A DNA stretch of 64,000 nucleotides from an uncultured Candidatus Saccharibacteria bacterium (GTDB lineage Bacteria > Patescibacteriota > Minisyncoccia > Phycocordibacterales > SBAW01). The position numbers and the translations under genes were made by a program. Below are positions 14,942-44,104 of the stretch, one piece after another (the first letter of the stretch is position 1; each line of letters opens with the position of its first letter). Below the pieces are notes generated by a model, which worked only from the letters and a program-made list of their open reading frames with translations, had not been told where the DNA came from and did no database searches. The stretch covers positions 176,746 to 240,745 of the forward strand of contig CAZTNI010000001.1 in assembly GCA_964615415.1 (NCBI GenBank). The letters are read 5' to 3'.

Positions 14942-17761
14942 CTATTTTTTGAGGTTGAGGGTTGCAGAACCTGCGAGGTCTATAGTGCTTGCAACAACAG
15001 TTGTGCTGGTAGTTGGTGCAACTTTTGCACTACCTACAAGACTGAGTTCTTGGCCTGGTGTGTAGACAATACCTGTCGCAGCGAGTGACGCAGAGCCAGC
15101 AAGCTTACTAGTTTCAAGCGGGAGGCCGCCCACTAAACTCGGGTCGACATACAGGGTGAAGCCTGCAAGCACTCCAGCGCTTGGCGCAACAAGTGTTACT
15201 TGTGCCGAGCCTGCGAAGTCAAACCCTGCATCTTTGCCGGTCATGAACATGGCAACGCCGCCGGTGCCGGTTACTTTGCCGCTTCCTTTTACTTCAAACG
15301 GACCGTCTTTAAGGATGTAGACACCGGGTGTAAGCGTAACTTTTGCAGATCCTGCAACGGTTATGCCGCCGCAGTACACGCCAGGGTTTAAGGTGACTGT
15401 CTGTGACTGTGCGATGTTGAGGTTGGTGTGCGTACAAGTGCCAACAGTTGGTTTCGGTTTTGTAGCGAAGGGATCGTTTTCAGGCGTGCAGGGTGTCGGG
15501 TCGGGAGTAATTTTCGGATTACCAGACTCTTTTACACCGCCGACAAAACAATTTTTAACTGTCTTGATAGTAGCTGACCCCGAGAGGGCGACTGCTTGTG
15601 CGCTGTTTGAGTTAACTTGCAGGTCGCAATTAGTGCCGAGCAGTTTAGAGCTGCCGACTAGTTTCAGTGCAGATGGAGCACTTGTGTTGAGTATTACGCC
15701 GCACGTGTCTGAGAGCGGTGGGCGCACGACAGTGAATTTACTTGTTGCAGACCCGGTGTGCCCGAAAGAGTCTGTTGCGGTTACTACCAAGGTCGACAGG
15801 CCGAGCGGCAAGGTTGCAAGGTTGAGCGGAGTTGCAGGGTTTATTGTATTGCCGTTAAGGAAGTACGACGTAGAGATAATCGGAGACTGCTCCGGGTCGG
15901 TGATGGTTGCGGTGACGGGGATAGTGTCGGTAGAAAGGTACGTGGTGCCGTCGAGCGGAGACTCGATACTAACCACAGGCGCTTCGGTGTCGAGCGGGTT
16001 AAGCGTCAGCGTTAGTTCATCGCCAGATGGGGTGAGGGTTAGTGTGTAGCCGACGACCTGTCCTCCTGCGGTAGCGTGGCTTGTGCTTGTTGCAACGACG
16101 CTCGAGCCGCACACCTCGGTTGCACTGATCGTAAAGGTGCCGCTACTTGCGCCTTGTGTCGAGACTTGATAGTCGCCCGCGATAGGATTTACTACTACGC
16201 CGTACTCGGTTGTTGTGGTGGCGCCTGAGTAGAATGCATTTGGAATTTCTTCAAACGTGCCAGGAGCAGTAAAGTTTTTTCCGAGACGGTCACCGTTCGG
16301 GTCGGTAATTTGAATATCGACAGGCTGCGTTGCGGAAAGGAAGAGTACACAGCTAACAGGGTAGGCAGTGTTTGTAGTGGCACTTGGTGCGCGGCCCGCA
16401 AGTGCTGTAAAGATGGTGCTGCGTGCGGCGGTAGGGAGGCCGCGATGCGTGGTGAGAAATTCCTGGTCGATACCGAACATGATGTCGATACTTGAGCGCG
16501 GGACCATGCCGTCGCCTAAGTCGGTATAGGTGTCGGTTGGTTCGCCGTCTGGCCACAGTGGCGGGTTAGTTGATGCGGTAGTCGAGAAGTAAATAGGAGT
16601 CGTAGCTAAACCGTCCTCCGCAGAGTAGACCTTCATCTGTATTTGCTGCAGTGCGGTCGCGCTTGCGACGAGTGCGTTCATGAATGGGTTTGCTGGTGGC
16701 GTGTCAGTGTAGTCCTGAGGAGGGAGAAGTTCTTTAAATGAGGCTACTGGTTTTGCCTGAATGTAGGCGTAGGCAGATGTGTGACCGGCATCTTTCGCTT
16801 GCTGCAAGAGTAGTGCTTGGATCAGCGAGTCGTTGATGCCATTGCCAGTGCGGATTTGCGCCCCTTCCCATGCAAGGTATGCGCTTGGGACGCCGTAAAA
16901 CGGTGTTGCAAGAAAGAGTGTCTGGTCCACATCTTTTGCGTACGTACCTCCTTGTATGTACTGCTGCGCGATAGTGCCGCCCATGCCGTGGCCGATCAAG
17001 TCAACGTAGCCGCAAGCACACTCTGTTTTTTTGTCAGCGATAAACTGTTTCAATTCGGCGGCAGATGTGACGTTTGACTGTTGCCAGTTGTACGGGAAGA
17101 CGAAGAGGTTTGCATTAAGTACGTACCCATTTTGTACCAATGTGTCGATAAGGTTTTGATACTGATGGAACACTGGGTCAACTTGCTTACCAGTCGAAGT
17201 CTCCCAGGTGGTGTAGATGTCGGGAACGATAATCACTGGTTCAAACTCTGCAGCAGGCTTCGGCCCCCACTTCCACGGCAAGATGTAATAGTTTTGATTC
17301 TCTACAGCTTCAGGTGGAATGGGGCTACCGTTTGTAAGGTGGTCGGTAAACGCACTGCCAAGGCTGCTGTCGTACACTACTGCAAAAAAGTATTCGTCGT
17401 TTACTGCGTTGGTGGGAATGTTGCTTGGTGTTTGACGTACTAACGTAGCGGCTGCTGCGGGGCCGGTAACAGTGTCTGCAGCTAAGACGGTCGAATTGGT
17501 TGGTGTGCCGCGACGCAGCTCTATGACTGGATTAGTGAGGGGAGCGGGGAGCGAGTAGTAACAGCCGTCGCCCGGTACTCCTGCGCGTGGCAGATAGTGG
17601 TAGTTAGAGGTGAATGGAAATTTATAGAGGTCGCAATAAAAAGAAAACCCCTGCTCATAGGTGGGGTCACTTGAAACGGCACTCACATTTGCGAACGCAG
17701 TCGGAACTGAAATGCTAAAGAAGCACAGCAATGCAGCTACCCAATAATGTATGTATTTCAT
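14942..17761 (-). CDS. very large secreted alpha/beta-hydrolase, LCAT/PGAP1-like family (paralog B) with a C-terminal beta-rich repeat region
   Basis: Signal peptide MKYIHYWVAALLCFFSISVPTAFA. N-terminus PVIIVPDIYTTW. Nucleophile elbow VDLIGHGMGG. About 55-60% identity to paralog A over the first 300 aa. C-terminal repeats containing GSAKVT, GSAQVT and GSATLN. Confidence 0.75.
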   Translation of the reverse strand: MKYIHYWVAALLCFFSISVPTAFANVSAVSSDPTYEQGFSFYCDLYKFPFTSNYHYLPRAGVPGDGCYYSLPAPLTNPVIELRRGTPTNSTVLAADTVTGPAAAATLVRQTPSNIPTNAVNDEYFFAVVYDSSLGSAFTDHLTNGSPIPPEAVENQNYYILPWKWGPKPAAEFEPVIIVPDIYTTWETSTGKQVDPVFHQYQNLIDTLVQNGYVLNANLFVFPYNWQQSNVTSAAELKQFIADKKTECACGYVDLIGHGMGGTIAQQYIQGGTYAKDVDQTLFLATPFYGVPSAYLAWEGAQIRTGNGINDSLIQALLLQQAKDAGHTSAYAYIQAKPVASFKELLPPQDYTDTPPANPFMNALVASATALQQIQMKVYSAEDGLATTPIYFSTTASTNPPLWPDGEPTDTYTDLGDGMVPRSSIDIMFGIDQEFLTTHRGLPTAARSTIFTALAGRAPSATTNTAYPVSCVLFLSATQPVDIQITDPNGDRLGKNFTAPGTFEEIPNAFYSGATTTTEYGVVVNPIAGDYQVSTQGASSGTFTISATEVCGSSVVATSTSHATAGGQVVGYTLTLTPSGDELTLTLNPLDTEAPVVSIESPLDGTTYLSTDTIPVTATITDPEQSPIISTSYFLNGNTINPATPLNLATLPLGLSTLVVTATDSFGHTGSATSKFTVVRPPLSDTCGVILNTSAPSALKLVGSSKLLGTNCDLQVNSNSAQAVALSGSATIKTVKNCFVGGVKESGNPKITPDPTPCTPENDPFATKPKPTVGTCTHTNLNIAQSQTVTLNPGVYCGGITVAGSAKVTLTPGVYILKDGPFEVKGSGKVTGTGGVAMFMTGKDAGFDFAGSAQVTLVAPSAGVLAGFTLYVDPSLVGGLPLETSKLAGSASLAATGIVYTPGQELSLVGSAKVAPTTSTTVVASTIDLAGSATLNLKK

Positions 17762-17834
17762 ATATATAAGAGTAGCATAGTGGGATAAAAAGAAATCCCC
17801 GCGGCGCACCTGGTGCGCTGCGGGGATGAATTGT

Positions 17835-23968: not shown

Positions 23969-24006
23969 AAAGAAAAAACCGCCAAATGGCGGCTTTTCTT
24001 TTTATG
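23969..24006 (-). terminator. intrinsic terminator of ssrA
   Basis: Hairpin CCGCCAAATGGCGG followed by a T-run on the minus strand, directly after the tmRNA 3' end. Confidence 0.75.
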
Positions 24007-24380
24007 TGGAAGTGGGCGGAGTTGAACCGCCGTGCAACACAAGTCCTCGTACACATCTACAGAAGATAGACTATCTTATTTTCTTGGACTCAATCGTAAG
24101 AGATAGACAGAATAAAATTGAGCTGCAGCTTCATAGTTTCAATTACTGAGCGAAGCGGTTCTCAGTAACTAGAGCCTGAAATATAACACTCGGTCTCCAT
24201 ACTCAGACACTCTGGAGCGAATGTGATTATGCGCGCGCTGTTGCGAACGATAGATCATTCACCGAGAAATACGGTGATTTAACTGATTTTGCAGTTATGG
24301 TTTGGCACATTTTTAAGAAGGTATGCCACTTCTCTCCTGCATGTAGGAAGATAATTGTATTGTCTAAGCCTGTCACTCCC
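24007..24380 (-). ncRNA. ssrA: transfer-messenger RNA (tmRNA, SsrA)
   Basis: Minus strand 5' GGGAGUG ... GUGUACGAGGACUUGUGUUGCACGGCGGUUCAACUCCGCCCACUUCCA 3'. T-arm GGCGG-UUCAACU-CCGCC identical to the E. coli tmRNA T-loop. Acceptor pairing GGGAGUG/CACUUCC with a G3:U70 wobble (Ala identity). CCA not encoded. Lies downstream of smpB on the same strand. Candidate tag ORF GCA (nt 89) ... ends FATARA-TAA at 24227-24229. Confidence 0.8.
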
Positions 24381-30602: not shown

Positions 30603-30630
30603 CCGGCCAGAAATGGCCGGAATTTTTTTG
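30603..30630 (+). terminator. intrinsic terminator
   Basis: Hairpin CCGGCC-AGAAAT-GGCCGG followed by AATTTTTTT. Confidence 0.7.
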
Positions 30631-30702
30631 TGGGCGCGGCAGGGATCGAACCTGCGACCAGTCGTGTATAAGACGACGGCTCTACCACTGAGCTACGCGC
30701 CC
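30631..30702 (-). tRNA. tRNA-Ile with anticodon UAU (reads AUA)
   Basis: Minus strand GGGCGCG-UA-GCUC-AGUGGUA-GAGC-C-GUCGU-CUUAUAC-ACGAC-UGGUC-GCAGG-UUCGAUC-CCUGC-CGCGCCC-A. All four stems are perfect. CCA not encoded. Confidence 0.85.
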
Positions 30703-38910: not shown

Positions 38911-40074
38911 TTAGGCAACTATTTCTTTTGCTTTTTCAATAAAGTCCTCAACTGTAAGGATAGTGAGAGGATGATTTTTCGGATACTCGTCTTGGAGTTT
39001 GCGAGGCACTACCAGTGTCACTCCTGCCTCGTGCATCTCCGTGAGTTGGTTTGACGAAATGCCAGGCTGCAGCGTGAGAATGTGTTTATTTTTTACCCGT
39101 TTGCCCTCATTCAACACCTGTCGCCATCGGTCTTTGCACGTGGTCTTTACGCCCATCACAATCAGATTTTCAGTCGGATATGATGTATCCAAATACGCTT
39201 CTTTACTTGGAAAAACAATGTCTGGTTTTCCATCAACACGCGGCTGCATCTCGTGAGGCAGATTTGCTTCGGTGAGAATACTGTCTACGTGGTTCTCAAG
39301 CGAGTGACCCGCTCTTGATTTGCGGCGGTTCATAATGCTTGCTGCCGTGTGGAGGAAGTCATCAACATCTTTGAAAAGACGACCTATTTCTGACTGGCAA
39401 ATTTGTCGCTCAACCACTTGGAATAGTCGGTATTCGGTTAAATAGTATTCAAGAAGCTTGGTATCCGCAGGTTGTTTAGCCAGCTCACTGAAACAGTGAG
39501 CGAGCATATCACGTGTTGAGTTTGAAAAGACATCTGTGCGAGGAAAGGTCTCAAGTGACTTTGCGAACTCTTGAAACTGCTTCTCCAAACACGCATCGGT
39601 ATCCTCAACTTCTGCCGCACCGTTTTTGTAAATAGCCCAGTGCTCAAAGGGCTGTACGCCCAAAGAAGCCATTATTTCCTCAATGTCATCCTCTTGGTCA
39701 AAAACATACGCGTTGAAGTGTTTGGCACTCGTAGGAACAAGCATCAGCAGATCTCCAACGGTGTCAGGTATGAGGAATGGAAAATCGCGTCCGAAGCGGG
39801 TCAGTCGGTACTCTGAACGCGTGCCCTGACCGTACCAAGTGACAACGGAGTTCGTGGTTCTTCCATCGTGCCATTCAATGTCTACATCGTGCTTTGTATT
39901 TTGCCCTTTGGTAGGAGCATTTGGGGTGTAAATCTCCCACGCAGATTTTGGTAGATAAAACCCTGCCTGATGCGCTCCTGTCGCACCTGTGTCATTCGGC
40001 GAGATGAACTTCAATAGCGCGTTTCCGTGCTGTACTGCCTCACTGATTGCTTTTTCGATAAGTGGTGACGCCAT
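38911..40074 (-). CDS. EcoRII-family type IIE restriction endonuclease
   Basis: N-terminal effector domain KFISPNDTGATGAHQAGFYLP and RFGRDFPFLIPDTVGDLLMLV align closely with EcoRII KRLSANDTGATGGHQVGLYIP / RWGRGSPLQDPENTGALTLLAF. Confidence 0.8.
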   Translation of the reverse strand: MASPLIEKAISEAVQHGNALLKFISPNDTGATGAHQAGFYLPKSAWEIYTPNAPTKGQNTKHDVDIEWHDGRTTNSVVTWYGQGTRSEYRLTRFGRDFPFLIPDTVGDLLMLVPTSAKHFNAYVFDQEDDIEEIMASLGVQPFEHWAIYKNGAAEVEDTDACLEKQFQEFAKSLETFPRTDVFSNSTRDMLAHCFSELAKQPADTKLLEYYLTEYRLFQVVERQICQSEIGRLFKDVDDFLHTAASIMNRRKSRAGHSLENHVDSILTEANLPHEMQPRVDGKPDIVFPSKEAYLDTSYPTENLIVMGVKTTCKDRWRQVLNEGKRVKNKHILTLQPGISSNQLTEMHEAGVTLVVPRKLQDEYPKNHPLTILTVEDFIEKAKEIVA

Positions 40075-40080
40075 TGTAGT

Positions 40081-41244
40081 TTATTTTGCTTTGCGTTTTG
40101 CCTTCTTTGCGAGGAAAGTTTTGACCATCTGCGCTGCCGTTGCCTCAACTGCTGGCACGACAACCGCGTTGCCAAACTGCCTGTACGCCTGTGTATCAGA
40201 TACTACTACCTTGCACTCCTTCGGGAAACCCATTAGTTTGGCGCACTCCTGTGGTGTCAGACGGCGTGGAGATTTCCTGTCTTTCTGCTCAATAAGGATT
40301 TCAGAACCGTCCTTGTAGTAACGGGCGCTCAACGTTCTGGTGATGCCGTTAGGGTCAGCGATGCCGAAGCCAAAACCGTTTCCCTTTTCCCGATGACGCT
40401 GTGCGTAGTTCTGCAAATACTGCCACAGATGGTCAGTGAGGGTATATTTTGCATCAGGTTTCTTCTCCAAAATGTCTTTGAGTTTTGCTTTGAGTGGCGG
40501 TGGTTCTGGGAACATGAAGTCAGGGTTCTCTCCAAACACCGACTTCTTGAAAGCGATGATGAAAATGCGCTCGCGGTGCTGCGGAACCCAGTGTGCAGCA
40601 TCATATACCCGCGTGAACGTCACGTAGCCGAGGTCTTTCAGCGTGTTCATTATCACGGTCCACGTCTTGCCTCCATCGTGTGACTGTAGGTTTTTTACGT
40701 TCTCCAAGAAAAGTACCGATGGCTTTTTTGCCTGAATAATCGTGGCAAGGTAGAAGAAAAGATTACCTTGATTTTTATCCTTAAAACCGTGCTCCAAACC
40801 CAAACTCTTTTTCTTTGAAACCCCTGCGAGAGAGAAGGGCTGGCAAGGAAAACCAGCAGCCAACACATCGTGATTGGGAATGTCTGCGGGCTTTACCTTT
40901 CGGATGTCACCTGCGGGCATCTCACCAAACCACGCCTTATAGGTTTTCTGGGAATACTTGTCCCATTCTGAAGTATAAACACACTCACCGCCAAGTTTCT
41001 CAAGAGCTATCCTGAATCCGCCAATCCCGGCAAAGAGGTCGATAAACGTAAAAGTAGTTGGAACATTTGGTTTGGGGAAAAGACGTTCACTTGGGAAAAG
41101 CTCTCGTTGTTGTACCTCTTTAGAGAGCTTGTTAAGCACAGTTAGTACGAACTCTTGTTGAGTCATGTTCTGTTGCTGCCGTTCTTTTTCAATCCATTTT
41201 TCAGTAGCAGTCGGTATATTCCTTACTAAAAGTTGCTTGCTCAT
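40081..41244 (-). CDS. DNA (cytosine-5) methyltransferase with an N-terminal ribbon-helix-helix-like extension
   Basis: Motif I FIDLFAGIGGF. Motif IV GFPCQPFSLAG. ENV motif. N-terminal QLLVRNIPTATEKWIEKERQQQNMTQQEFVLTVLNK matches the RHH (CopG/Arc) pattern. The only ATG is at 41242-41244. Confidence 0.85.
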   Translation of the reverse strand: MSKQLLVRNIPTATEKWIEKERQQQNMTQQEFVLTVLNKLSKEVQQRELFPSERLFPKPNVPTTFTFIDLFAGIGGFRIALEKLGGECVYTSEWDKYSQKTYKAWFGEMPAGDIRKVKPADIPNHDVLAAGFPCQPFSLAGVSKKKSLGLEHGFKDKNQGNLFFYLATIIQAKKPSVLFLENVKNLQSHDGGKTWTVIMNTLKDLGYVTFTRVYDAAHWVPQHRERIFIIAFKKSVFGENPDFMFPEPPPLKAKLKDILEKKPDAKYTLTDHLWQYLQNYAQRHREKGNGFGFGIADPNGITRTLSARYYKDGSEILIEQKDRKSPRRLTPQECAKLMGFPKECKVVVSDTQAYRQFGNAVVVPAVEATAAQMVKTFLAKKAKRKAK

Positions 41245-41336
41245 GTCTCTGTGAATATATGATAGCAAATATACCCAGCTCTGGTATAACTAGTTTTCCA
41301 CAGAACATCAAACTTAGAGGTTCAAAGTTGCCAATC

Positions 41337-41426
41337 TGGCGGAGAGGGAGGGATTCGAACCCTCGGAACCCTTTCGGGCTCAACAACTTAGCAGGTTGCT
41401 CCATTCGGCCGCTCTGGCACCTCTCC
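41337..41426 (-). tRNA. tRNA-Ser(GCU), type II
   Basis: Minus strand GGAGAGG-UG-CCA-...-GCAAC-CUGCUAA-GUUGU-(long variable arm)-GAGGG-UUCGAAU-CCCUC-CCUCUCC-G-CCA. G73 discriminator. CCA encoded. Confidence 0.85.
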
Positions 41427-41498: not shown

Positions 41499-42095
41499 AT
41501 GATCCAGGGTATGGAAAATACACTCACGCAAAAAAAGCGCTTTCCGAGCCTGCTTATTATTTTGATTGTTCTTGCAGTGCTTGTCGTTGCGTACGGAGGA
41601 ATAAAGTATAACGGTCTTGTGAAGAGTAGCGAGTCTATTAGTGCACAGTGGGCACAGGTCGAGTCGCAATATCAGCGTCGCTTTGACCTCATTCCTAACC
41701 TGGTTAATTCAGTAAAAGGAATTATGACGCAGGAGCAGGAAATATTTACTGCGATTGCAGATGCGCGTTCTCGATACGCGGGTGCGACAACACCTGATGC
41801 ACAAGCGGCGGCTGCAGGCGAGGTGGAATCATCACTCGCACGGTTGCTTGTGGTCATGGAAAACTATCCGCAGCTGCGTTCTGTTGAGACAGTACAAAGC
41901 CTGATGGCAGAACTTGCAGGCACAGAAAACCGCATTGCGGTAGAGCGTATGCGCTACAACGAGTTAGTGCGCGACTACAACGTGAGTGTAAAGACGTTCC
42001 CTGGGTCGCTTATTGCAGGTGTGTTTGGATTTGATCCACGCACGCTGTTTGAAGCACAGACGGATGCAGACACTGCTCCGGAAGTAAACTTCTAG
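41499..42095 (+). CDS. lemA: LemA family protein
   Basis: N-terminal TM, then the conserved LemA pattern ... AQWAQVESQYQRRFDLIPNLV ... NYPQLRS ... RYNE. Confidence 0.85.
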   Translation: MIQGMENTLTQKKRFPSLLIILIVLAVLVVAYGGIKYNGLVKSSESISAQWAQVESQYQRRFDLIPNLVNSVKGIMTQEQEIFTAIADARSRYAGATTPDAQAAAAGEVESSLARLLVVMENYPQLRSVETVQSLMAELAGTENRIAVERMRYNELVRDYNVSVKTFPGSLIAGVFGFDPRTLFEAQTDADTAPEVNF

Positions 42096-42097
42096 CC

Positions 42098-42985
42098 ATG
42101 AGAAAAGTGCTCGGTGCAATAAGTGTGCTGTGTGCAGCGCTGATGTTGCCCGTAGCGGCTTTTGCCTACACATCACCGGGAGAGCCGACGGGGTATGTAA
42201 ATGACTTTGCAGGCGTTTTGCGTGCTGAAACTATCAGTACGCTGAATACCGAACTTAACTTGTTTGAAGCATCTACTTCGAATCAAATCGCTGTCGTGAC
42301 AGTAAGAAATCTCGGAGGCGATTATATTGAACACTATGCCGCGGAGTTATTTAAGGACTGGGGTATAGGAAAAGAAAAAGAAGATAATGGAGTCTTGTTG
42401 CTGTTGGCTATTGATGACCGGGAATTGCGCATCGAAGTTGGGTATGGATTGGAAGGCGCTCTGCCGGACTCTCTTGCACAGCGCATCATCAACAATGACA
42501 TAGTGCCGCTCCTTAAAGAGGAGGAGTATGATGCTGCGGTGCAAGTGGGGGTAGAAAAAATTGCAGTTGCGATACGAGGTGAGTATGTGAGTGGAGGTGT
42601 TGTGGGTATGGAAGGCAACTTTGACCTCATCATTACGTTCCTTATAGGAAGTCTACTTGTCTTGCCCTGGGGTGCGGCGATATTTGCTCGGAGTAAGTCA
42701 TGGTGGGCAGGAGGTGTTGTTGGAGTGCTTTTGGGAGTTGGGGCGGGATTCTTTTTTGGACTAGCGCTCTGGTTAGCTGCTATTGTGGCAGCCGCACTCG
42801 GACTATTCGGTTTAATTTTAGACTTTATAGTCTCAAACGCCTACAAACATGCATGGAGTATGGGAAGCGGTACGTCTATTCCGTGGTGGGCTGGAGGCGG
42901 CCACACAAGCGGCAGCTCTTCCGGAAGTTGGGGCGGATTCGGTGGCGGTTCGTCTGGCGGCGGCGGCGCGTCAGGAAGTTGGTAG
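42098..42985 (+). CDS. TPM-domain (YgcG-like) protein with a Gly/Ser-rich C-terminus
   Basis: Signal peptide. TPM-like domain. C-terminal TM followed by GGGHTSGSSSGSWGGFGGGSSGGGGASGSW. Classic LemA-TPM pair. Confidence 0.75.
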   Translation: MRKVLGAISVLCAALMLPVAAFAYTSPGEPTGYVNDFAGVLRAETISTLNTELNLFEASTSNQIAVVTVRNLGGDYIEHYAAELFKDWGIGKEKEDNGVLLLLAIDDRELRIEVGYGLEGALPDSLAQRIINNDIVPLLKEEEYDAAVQVGVEKIAVAIRGEYVSGGVVGMEGNFDLIITFLIGSLLVLPWGAAIFARSKSWWAGGVVGVLLGVGAGFFFGLALWLAAIVAAALGLFGLILDFIVSNAYKHAWSMGSGTSIPWWAGGGHTSGSSSGSWGGFGGGSSGGGGASGSW

Positions 42986-43085
42986 ATTAATAGTGTTCTA
43001 AAACTTCGACCCTAAGGGTTCATAGATTCGTCTGTAGTTAAGAATTTCTTCCCCTTGTGTTATAGTCAGGCTTTGGAAGTACTCT

Positions 43086-43487
43086 TTGCTCAAACCGGAG
43101 GTTTACATGAGCACCGCGACATCTGCATACGCCCAATTTGTAGGGCAGATACCGCGCTTTAAACCGCGCGTGTTGTATCTCAAGCTTTCCGATTGGTTGA
43201 TGTATTGGGCACGTGACTGCTCGTACGTTGCTACGCCCACTACGCATCCACAGATCGAACTTCTTGTCTGCGATAAAGAAGTAGTCGGGGTAAAAATCCT
43301 CAGCTTCTCGCTGTTGCCGCGCAGCGTGCGCGATCGCCTACTTGAAGCAACTCGCCTCGACTTGGACGCAATTACTGGTATTGAAGAGCTGTGGAAATTG
43401 AATCTCAAAGAAATGTCGCCCGAACTCAGTGCCTCTGAGATGATCTTTTTCCAAGAACTGCGCAGAGTTGGTACGGCGTTTGTATAG
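43086..43487 (+). CDS. hypothetical protein
   Basis: 133-aa ORF. Confidence 0.45.
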   Translation: MLKPEVYMSTATSAYAQFVGQIPRFKPRVLYLKLSDWLMYWARDCSYVATPTTHPQIELLVCDKEVVGVKILSFSLLPRSVRDRLLEATRLDLDAITGIEELWKLNLKEMSPELSASEMIFFQELRRVGTAFV

Positions 43488-43534
43488 TGCCTTCGCCCCG
43501 TGATTCGTCACGGGGCGTTTTGTATACTGTATCT

Positions 43535-43960
43535 ATGAACAGAGTTGCACATTTCGAAATTCATGCGGACGACCCGGATCGTGCGCAAAAATTTTATGAG
43601 TCAGTGTTTGGGTGGAAGTTTATTGCCATGGGCGAAGAATATGGTGGGTATCGTGTTGTGGTGACTGGTCCAGGTCCTGATGATATTGCTGCTGGTAAAG
43701 TACCCATGGAAAACATCGGTATTAATGGTGGTATGTTGCAGCGCAATGCGCCAAAACCAGCTGCGGGCATGTCGCCAATGTCGTTTGTGTGTTTGGTAAG
43801 TGTCGATAATATTGATACCTATATTGAGAAGGCTAGAGCTGCGGGTGGCGTAGAACATATGCCGAGAACAGATATACCAAAGGTGGGTATTGTTGCTTAC
43901 TATGCTGACACAGAAGGAAATCTATTTGGTATGATCCAGCCTGAGATGCCGACTGCGTAG
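43535..43960 (+). CDS. VOC/glyoxalase-family protein
   Basis: MNRVAHFEIHADDPDRAQKFYESVFGWKF. Internal ATG preceded by TTGTATACT. Confidence 0.75.
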   Translation: MNRVAHFEIHADDPDRAQKFYESVFGWKFIAMGEEYGGYRVVVTGPGPDDIAAGKVPMENIGINGGMLQRNAPKPAAGMSPMSFVCLVSVDNIDTYIEKARAAGGVEHMPRTDIPKVGIVAYYADTEGNLFGMIQPEMPTA

Positions 43961-43973
43961 TCGGGGTCTCTCA

Positions 43974-44058
43974 GGAGAGATGGATGAGTGGTTTAAATCA
44001 ACAGTTTACTAAACTGTCGATCCGCAAGGATCCGTGGGTTCGAATCCCACTCTCTCCG
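43974..44058 (+). tRNA. Ser-like type II tRNA with an unusual anticodon loop UUACUAA (anticodon ACU)
   Basis: GGAGAGA-UG-GAU-GAGUGGUUUAA-AUC-A-ACAGU-UUACUAA-ACUGU-(16-nt variable arm GAUCC-GCAA-GGAUC)-GUGGG-UUCGAAU-CCCAC-UCUCUCC-G. All stems pair. G73 discriminator and 3-bp D-stem as in tRNA-Ser. Confidence 0.55.
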
Positions 44059-44104
44059 CATAAAGAAAGATATACGTGCCTCATCCGTCAGGTACTATAC
44101 AAAC

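Follow-up and report, generated by a model that had tools for sequence, protein, structure and literature searches.

A tRNA-Ser gene with anticodon ACU and its relatives in CPR bacteria, Planctomycetota and phages

The 64-kb stretch of DNA analysed here (hereafter the window) carries an intact, well-formed type II tRNA-Ser gene with the anticodon ACU, and genes of the same kind make up a widespread family in CPR bacteria, some Planctomycetota and many phages, which the first-pass annotation of this DNA had not foreseen. We consider it probable, at roughly three chances in four, that the gene product is a functional elongator tRNA, a dedicated reader of AGU with an unmodified A34. The broader proposition, that CPR/Patescibacteria, some Planctomycetota and many phages routinely use a genuine unmodified A34 in a split codon box, is one that we would accept about as readily as doubt.

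The rarity of tRNAs with a wobble A is a long-standing question in the decoding of the genetic code. Split-box ANN anticodons are described as universally missing in a 2021 review (PMC8007984) and in a 2026 preprint (10.64898/2026.05.15.725136); the seven of them, Ser-ACU included, are taken to be absent, from phages too, and selection arguments have been built on this absence (PMC8007984; 10.64898/2026.05.15.725136). The first-pass annotation was in line with the prevailing view in treating A34 as normally confined to tRNA-Arg(ACG). The review also states that the tRNA genes missing from bacteria are missing from phages as well (PMC8007984), and the virus survey cited by both review and preprint contains no discussion at the level of anticodons (PMC6409571). 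The open-access literature, in which the spelling 'tRNA-Ser(ACT)' could escape a search, yielded no account of tRNA-Ser(ACU) from CPR or phages, and the family apparently has gone unrecognised, its genes standing unremarked in public annotations. A conserved and selected Ser(ACU) family contradicts the premise of universal split-box ANN absence, and the supposed ban on ACU-type tRNAs is not universal.

Structure of the gene and its anticodon arm

The coordinates of the gene, its elements and the neighbouring features are given in Table 1. ARAGORN called tRNA-Ser(act) at 43974-44059 (+), and Rfam RF00005 matched the gene over model positions 1-71 of 71 with 58.1 bits against a gathering score of 29, no non-canonical pair being flagged in the match at 43974-44058; the neighbouring tRNA-Ser(GCU) has the lower score, 52.0 bits. 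The acceptor stem has 7 bp (GGAGAGA/UCUCUCC), the D stem 3 bp, the T arm reads GUGGG-UUCGAAU-CCCAC, and G73 (position 44058) serves as discriminator. A CCA tail is absent from the gene, the bases directly 3' being CAU, and its G+C content is 0.48 vs 0.61 for the tRNA-Ser(GCU) gene of the window. The long variable arm, G73 and the pairs G1-C72 and G2-C71, all present here, are what we take to be the serine identity elements recognised by SerRS; type II tRNAs for Leu and Tyr have the discriminator A73, in contrast to the G73 of Ser.

Every structural feature on which the first-pass annotation had based its serine-type, type II assignment was found in the sequence. The resemblance that it saw between this acceptor stem and that of tRNA-Ser(GCU) holds at 6/7 positions, with 58/85 positions identical over the whole tRNA. 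Its anticodon, ACU, is the one called by ARAGORN and is fully complementary to the serine codon AGU. We rejected an alternative fold or an intron, as both ARAGORN and Infernal give the standard 85-nt type II cloverleaf, and the predictor scores carry no low-score signal of a pseudogene.

Table 1. Positions of tRNA-Ser(ACU), its elements and other features of the window.
Feature	Position	Strand	Details and source
tRNA-Ser(ACU) gene, type II, 85 nt	43974..44058	+	ARAGORN; Rfam tRNA; sequence
Anticodon arm	44001..44017	+	Stem ACAGU/ACUGU (44001-44005 / 44013-44017), loop UUACUAA (44006-44012)
Anticodon A34-C35-U36, cognate to codon AGU	44008..44010	+	ARAGORN: anticodon at gene position 35
Long variable arm, 16 nt	44018..44033	+	5-bp stem GAUCC/GGAUC, loop GCAA; sequence
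Partner isoacceptor tRNA-Ser(GCU)	41340..41426	-	ARAGORN, Rfam; divergent to tRNA-Ser(ACU), 2.5 kb apart
LemA, TPM-domain protein, hypothetical protein, VOC/glyoxalase	41499-43960	+	Four genes between the two Ser tRNAs
Terminator-like hairpin	43494-43517		Within the 157-aa VOC ORF as listed
EcoRII-type restriction endonuclease and C-5 cytosine methyltransferase	38911-41268	-	G+C 0.436 vs ~0.49 in the window
tRNA-Ile(UAU)	30630-30702	-	Rfam 70.9 bits; adjoins RecG, near FtsH
tmRNA	24004-24380	-	Rfam 100.8 bits
Two large paralogous proteins, 717 and 955 aa	10182-12335; 14942-17809	-	LCAT/PGAP1-like lipase domains

The fold computed by ViennaRNA (-32.9 kcal/mol, z = -4.5) includes the pairs U32-A38 and U33-A37, by which the anticodon helix is lengthened to 7 bp with a 3-nt loop. 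The palindrome pointed out in the first-pass annotation is thus real, with an 8+8 symmetry centred on C35, but the extended hairpin into which it was thought to close is unsupported: the predicted 7-bp helix has no weight as evidence for another structure, because U32, U33, A37 and A38 are generic and are shared with the GCU genes, whose loop in CPR is UUGCUAA. These four residues are ordinary in tRNAs for codons starting with A, and A37 in tRNAs of the ACU/GCU kind is normally t6A-modified, which prevents U33-A37 pairing. The 11-mer GUUUACUAAAC at 44004-44014, fixed in the pattern of the genome scan described below, is also present in many phage copies for whose retrieval only UUACUAA was used. 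We rejected a stop-codon suppressor reading through the UUA or CUA contained in UUACUAA, since this needs a shifted anticodon and the window is a segment of bacterial chromosome with the standard code, normal stop codons and a coding density of 91%.

Distribution and separateness of the tRNA-Ser(ACU) family

Species-representative genomes were scanned with the pattern GTTTACTAAAC N(16-32) GGTTCGAATCC and viral contigs with TTACTAA N(18-34) GGTTCGAATCC, each scan returning at least 120 loci; such scans give lower bounds on family size, not prevalence, and 22 pattern bases are identical across the genome matches by construction, being imposed by the search. ARAGORN called Ser(act) in at least 119 bacterial loci (119/120 genome loci among the matches listed) and in at least 114 viral loci, many of the latter inside tRNA arrays of up to 23 genes, so that the same tRNA does occur in related genomes, a point the first-pass annotation had raised for checking. 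By record title, 65 of the 120 genome loci among the matches listed belong to CPR/Patescibacteria, under the names Paceibacterota, Parcubacteria, Taylor-, Nomura-, Zambryski-, Kaiser-, Magasanik-, Woese-, Collier-, Levy- and Roizmanbacteria, Microgenomates, Saccharibacteria and Minisyncoccia. Among the same 120, another 27 (within L131-L238) are TPA metagenome-assembled genomes titled Gammaproteobacteria or Pseudomonadales, 11 are Planctomycetota, 3 are Verrucomicrobiota MAGs, 9 are unclassified and 5 fall elsewhere. The titles of the 27 look unreliable, because their tRNA orders are CPR-like (Ser-UGA/Ser-GCU/Ser-ACU and Arg-GCG/Ser-CGA/Arg-CCG) and their tRNA sequences are close to Microgenomates or Paceibacteria records. 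The Planctomycetota MAG loci include L128, L138, L179, L213, L235, L236 and L237 (1219 region), in the last of which the surroundings of Ser(ACU), which include DUF1570, RsmD and arginine decarboxylase, are clearly chromosomal, and no GCU gene was found within 8 kb of it.

Among cultured phages the best match is the Xanthomonas jumbo phage XaC1, whose gene XaC1_458 is 80% identical, has the anticodon ACT and is annotated only as 'tRNA-Ser'. Phage genes of this kind share the anticodon loop of the window gene and often the same G30-U31/A39-C40 stem end. In phages ACU stands in for GCU and the two are mutually exclusive: among the matches listed, the ACU loci hold 1 GCU gene and the 120 GCU loci hold 0 ACU genes. 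The window gene, in contrast, is chromosomal and coexists with GCU. ACU-bearing phage arrays are enriched in tRNAs for codons that end in A or U (Ile-UAU, Leu-UAA, Arg-UCU), with 18 Ile-UAU vs 3 Ile-GAU and few Arg-ACG among the matches listed, and locus G+C, again among the matches listed, is 0.378 for ACU vs 0.415 for GCU.

To describe covariation, the window gene was aligned with 37 genome copies (38 sequences). Standard pairs occupy 99.5% of the structure cells of this alignment, 19/25 pairs show changes on both sides, and all five pairs of the variable-arm helix (5/5) covary; none of 500 shuffles reached the observed covariation values (0/500), and controls with slid partners were 35-58% paired. 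The pairs G1-C72 and G2-C71 do not vary, and all of the aligned ACU sequences (38/38) have G at position 73. With its high Rfam score and these compensatory changes, the gene does not conform to the pseudo-tRNA considered in the first-pass annotation.

Nor is it a recent copy of the local GCU gene, as the suggestion of a diverged duplicate would have it. In the 66 loci with both genes, the nearest neighbour of each ACU gene is an ACU gene and that of each GCU gene a GCU gene, and 55/56 keep a nearest neighbour of their own type when the pattern-fixed bases are masked; within these loci, identity between ACU and its own GCU neighbour is 0.70. With position 34 masked and phage genes added, a cellular ACU gene is never nearest to a GCU gene. 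The closest relatives of the window gene among the matches listed are chromosomal CPR genes from Taylorbacteria/Parcubacteria/Paceibacterota, at 0.85-0.92 identity and with the same D arm.

When a metagenome scan left position 34 free (N), the matches listed divided into 62 with A and 58 with G. The 22 closest copies among them, 84-92% identical to the window gene, all have A34 (22/22), while their variable arms, T stems and anticodon stems differ by compensatory changes. Sequences with G34 have other backbones (a GGUGAGG acceptor stem beside tRNA-Pro) or lie in array contexts. Judging from these comparisons, A34 is under selection in the close relatives. The idea of a backbone specific to A34 was dropped, the same stem with GCU being common in phages and the same D and anticodon arms occurring with G34 in other lineages.

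Genomic neighbourhood and inheritance

The genes of the window include FtsH, RecG, LigA, malic enzyme, tmRNA, a ComF-like phosphoribosyltransferase and pilM-N-O/pilB/pilT, and a stretch identical to the window was found on a metagenomic contig (Logan SRR14271373). In many Paceibacteria loci, Ser(ACU) has homologues of RecG, the ComF-like PRTase, PilM/N/O and PilB at a distance of at most 8 kb. Given this synteny and the housekeeping genes of the window, inheritance looks vertical. No phage genes were found around tRNA-Ser(ACU) in the window. Among the matches listed, tRNA-Ser(GCU) shares an 8-kb locus with Ser(ACU) in 65/119 genomes, at a median distance of 243 nt, and the two genes lie on the same strand or diverge but never converge. 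The window keeps the divergent pairing of its relatives with four genes inserted between, the spacing in relatives being usually ~100-400 nt vs 2.5 kb here. Taken together, these comparisons indicate that tRNA-Ser(ACU) is an old, vertically inherited and selected gene.

The gene starts 14 nt past the VOC/glyoxalase gene, and no sigma-70-like promoter was found in the 570 nt upstream of it, so that it may share a transcript with the VOC gene. The terminator-like hairpin of Table 1 falls inside the VOC reading frame as listed; the metagenome gene call begins at 43535 (141 aa).

On the other side of the partner gene, the restriction-modification stretch of low G+C abuts tRNA-Ser(GCU) directly and is probably an inserted island. 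We rejected duplication of an att site by a tRNA-integrated island as the origin of the ACU gene: the whole tRNA is present, it is only ~70% identical to GCU, and the two genes are divergent.

Further features of the window are worth recording. The anticodon UAU (Ile) is another that the 2021 review lists as missing from bacteria (PMC8007984). The tRNA-Ile(UAU) of the window has counterparts near Ser(ACU) in the CPR loci L150, L175, L208 and L223, and also in 18 ACU-type phage loci among the matches listed, which suggests a decoding of AUA that bypasses the lysidine/TilS route. The predicted tag of the tmRNA, AKSVKSPYFSVNDLSFATARA, is unusually long, and part of the pseudoknot region aligns poorly. 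The two paralogous lipase-domain proteins are encoded close together.

Decoding of AGU and alternative readings

In the reading that we prefer, SerRS would charge tRNA-Ser(ACU) through the long variable arm and G73, the anticodon not being read, and the elongator tRNA would form Watson-Crick pairs with all three bases of AGU, an unmodified A34 facing U3. The tRNA-Ser(GCU) alongside would read AGC, and AGU by G:U wobble. The gene belongs to a paralogue family of old standing, passed on vertically and carried on the chromosome in CPR/Patescibacteria, with a like tRNA in some Planctomycetota and in phage arrays; the window itself looks like part of a genome of Paceibacteria/Parcubacteria type. 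What we infer in this scheme is that the gene is expressed, that its tRNA is serylated with A34 left unmodified, and that its reading is restricted to AGU.

The most direct comparison is with bacterial tRNA-Ser(GCU) (E. coli serV, and the partner gene of the window), which has the same type II cloverleaf, long variable arm, G73, canonical T loop, G1-C72/G2-C71/A3-U70 pairs, U36-A37-A38 and AGY codon box. It differs in having G34 where the ACU gene has A34 and in belonging to a separate family of tRNA bodies, and it reads AGC and AGU, whereas ACU is expected to read AGU only. Among natural tRNAs the nearest analogue is the tRNA-Thr(AGU) of Mycoplasma/Mollicutes, a bacterial tRNA with an unmodified A34 (Andachi 1987 and Inagaki 1995, as cited in PMC11066159) in organisms with a reduced genome and modification set. 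That tRNA, in contrast, serves a four-fold box in which misreading is harmless, whereas ACU serves a box split between AGY Ser and AGR Arg, where reading of a third-position A or G would put Ser for Arg. Engineered A34 tRNAs supply the nearest experimental parallel. The M. jannaschii orthogonal tRNA(ACU) has the same anticodon, matures in E. coli and keeps A34 unmodified there, reading AGU at 9.4% with AGC below detection and misreading AGG at 0.36%, an instance of the misreading of other third bases of which an unmodified A34 is capable (PMC11066159); together with G34A alleles of E. coli (10.64898/2026.05.15.725136), such tRNAs read AGU with a discrimination of at least 95:5 against AGC. They are artificial, on a foreign or mutated backbone, whereas tRNA-Ser(ACU) is natural, conserved and located beside GCU.

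The AGN box is standard in these genomes, AGA/AGG aligning with R/K and AGU/AGC with S/T/N/A in 1443 HSPs between locus ORFs, and the alignment of AGA and AGG with R/K led us to reject a reassignment of AGR to Ser by super-wobble. In a comparison of PilT with PDB for the meaning of AGR, the gene was found to hold 0 AGR and only two AGY codons. In the codon-usage check proposed in the first-pass annotation, AGU makes up 18% of the Ser codons in the window; its share of AGY is not raised, at 0.578 vs an NNU share of 0.48-0.72 in the other pyrimidine-ending pairs of these genomes. Codon usage thus shows no mark of a dedicated AGU reader, and tRNA-Ser(ACU) looks redundant with GCU. We likewise rejected adaptation to codon usage as the driver, AGU not being specifically enriched, although the phage ACU loci are somewhat AT-richer than the GCU loci.

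The first-pass annotation had named A-to-I editing as a possible route to unusual decoding. By this account TadA or another deaminase would convert A34 to inosine, and the resulting ICU would be a broad AGY reader for AGU and AGC, possibly also AGA. The loop shares U33-A34-C35 with that of tRNA-Arg(ACG), and both loops have seven members and carry A37 and A38; the well-studied natural A34 tRNAs of bacteria carry I34, except Mycoplasma tRNA-Thr(AGU) (PMC8007984), a split-box Phe-AAA made in E. coli became I34 (2026 preprint, 10.64898/2026.05.15.725136), and the hosts of phages bearing Ser(ACU) may have TadA. Position 36, however, is U and not the G of the TadA-substrate loop U33-A34-N35-G36 found in the natural substrates Arg(ACG) and Leu(AAG), and the Arg tRNA has C32 where tRNA-Ser(ACU) has U32. 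A tRNA with this very anticodon escaped deamination in E. coli (PMC11066159). An ICU anticodon would place Ser at AGA codons, which in these genomes align with R/K. Among the matches listed, the CPR loci hold 9 Arg(GCG) and 0 Arg(ACG), which makes inosine at A34 unlikely and fits the absence of a TadA/inosine system; CPR have been reported to be without Arg(ACG) and to leave inosine wobble unused (Shulgina and Eddy, PMC8629427). The tRNA-Arg content suggests that TadA may be absent from CPR, and no deaminase motif was found within the 64-kb window. Taking both sides together, we regard editing as improbable. The Arg(GCG) genes occur with Arg(CCG), often interleaved with Ser(CGA) and Ser(GGA), in the loci L134, L143, L147, L151, L152, L167, L180, L200 and L234.

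A dedicated AGU reader that leaves no mark on codon usage also invites the thought that tRNA-Ser(ACU) is kept for something else, as a back-up resistant to a toxin or anticodon nuclease, with G34A escaping an enzyme directed at the GCU loop, or for a use of Ser-tRNA outside the ribosome. It has been proposed that phage tRNAs escape anticodon nucleases by changes in the anticodon loop (PMC10264068), and the mutual exclusion of ACU and GCU in phages would suit such a role. An ACU tRNA is, however, unable to replace GCU at AGC codons, its T arm is canonical (GGUUCGAAUCC), unlike those of known cell-wall-dedicated tRNAs, and nuclease evasion would leave unexplained the chromosomal CPR genes, whose syntenic position beside GCU across many classes fits a housekeeping role. 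We know of no nuclease specific for tRNA-Ser(GCU), and rate this explanation a little below editing. That the gene was recently gained by horizontal transfer from an array of phage tRNAs, or is a duplicate or pseudogene in decay and without lasting function, we consider very unlikely and the least probable of the readings. The window tRNA is indeed as like the phage ACU genes (best 0.82, mean 0.72, among the matches listed) as its own GCU neighbour (0.71), its G+C is below that of the GCU gene, and a restriction-modification island lies nearby. Against this stand its closest relatives, which are chromosomal CPR genes, the syntenic housekeeping genes that flank it in surroundings free of phage genes, and a structure with no broken pairs and strong covariation. 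Covariation, linkage to GCU, the separateness of the two families, the constancy of A34 and synteny all argue against a pseudogene, a fresh G34A mutant or recent acquisition from a phage.

If these bacteria and phages do routinely use an unmodified A34 in a split box, avoidance of A34 would be contingent on the translation system (TadA, ribosome, modification context) rather than a universal constraint, and CPR bacteria and phage XaC1 would be natural systems in which to study the reasons for its avoidance elsewhere. Natural material on A34 modification, AGR misreading and its tolerance is offered by CPR co-cultures, phage XaC1 and Planctomycetes. For annotation, Ser(ACU) genes ought not to be discarded as pseudo-tRNAs, and an AGU-cognate reader should be counted in codon-adaptation indices derived from the tRNA content of CPR and phages.

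Other A34 tRNAs were predicted sporadically in phage arrays as well: among the matches listed, Thr-AGU (5), Leu-AAG (3), Ile-AAU (1), His-AUG (1) and Phe-AAA (1) in the GCU loci L245-L364, and Gly-ACC (2), Phe-AAA (1) and Thr-AGU (1) in the ACU loci.
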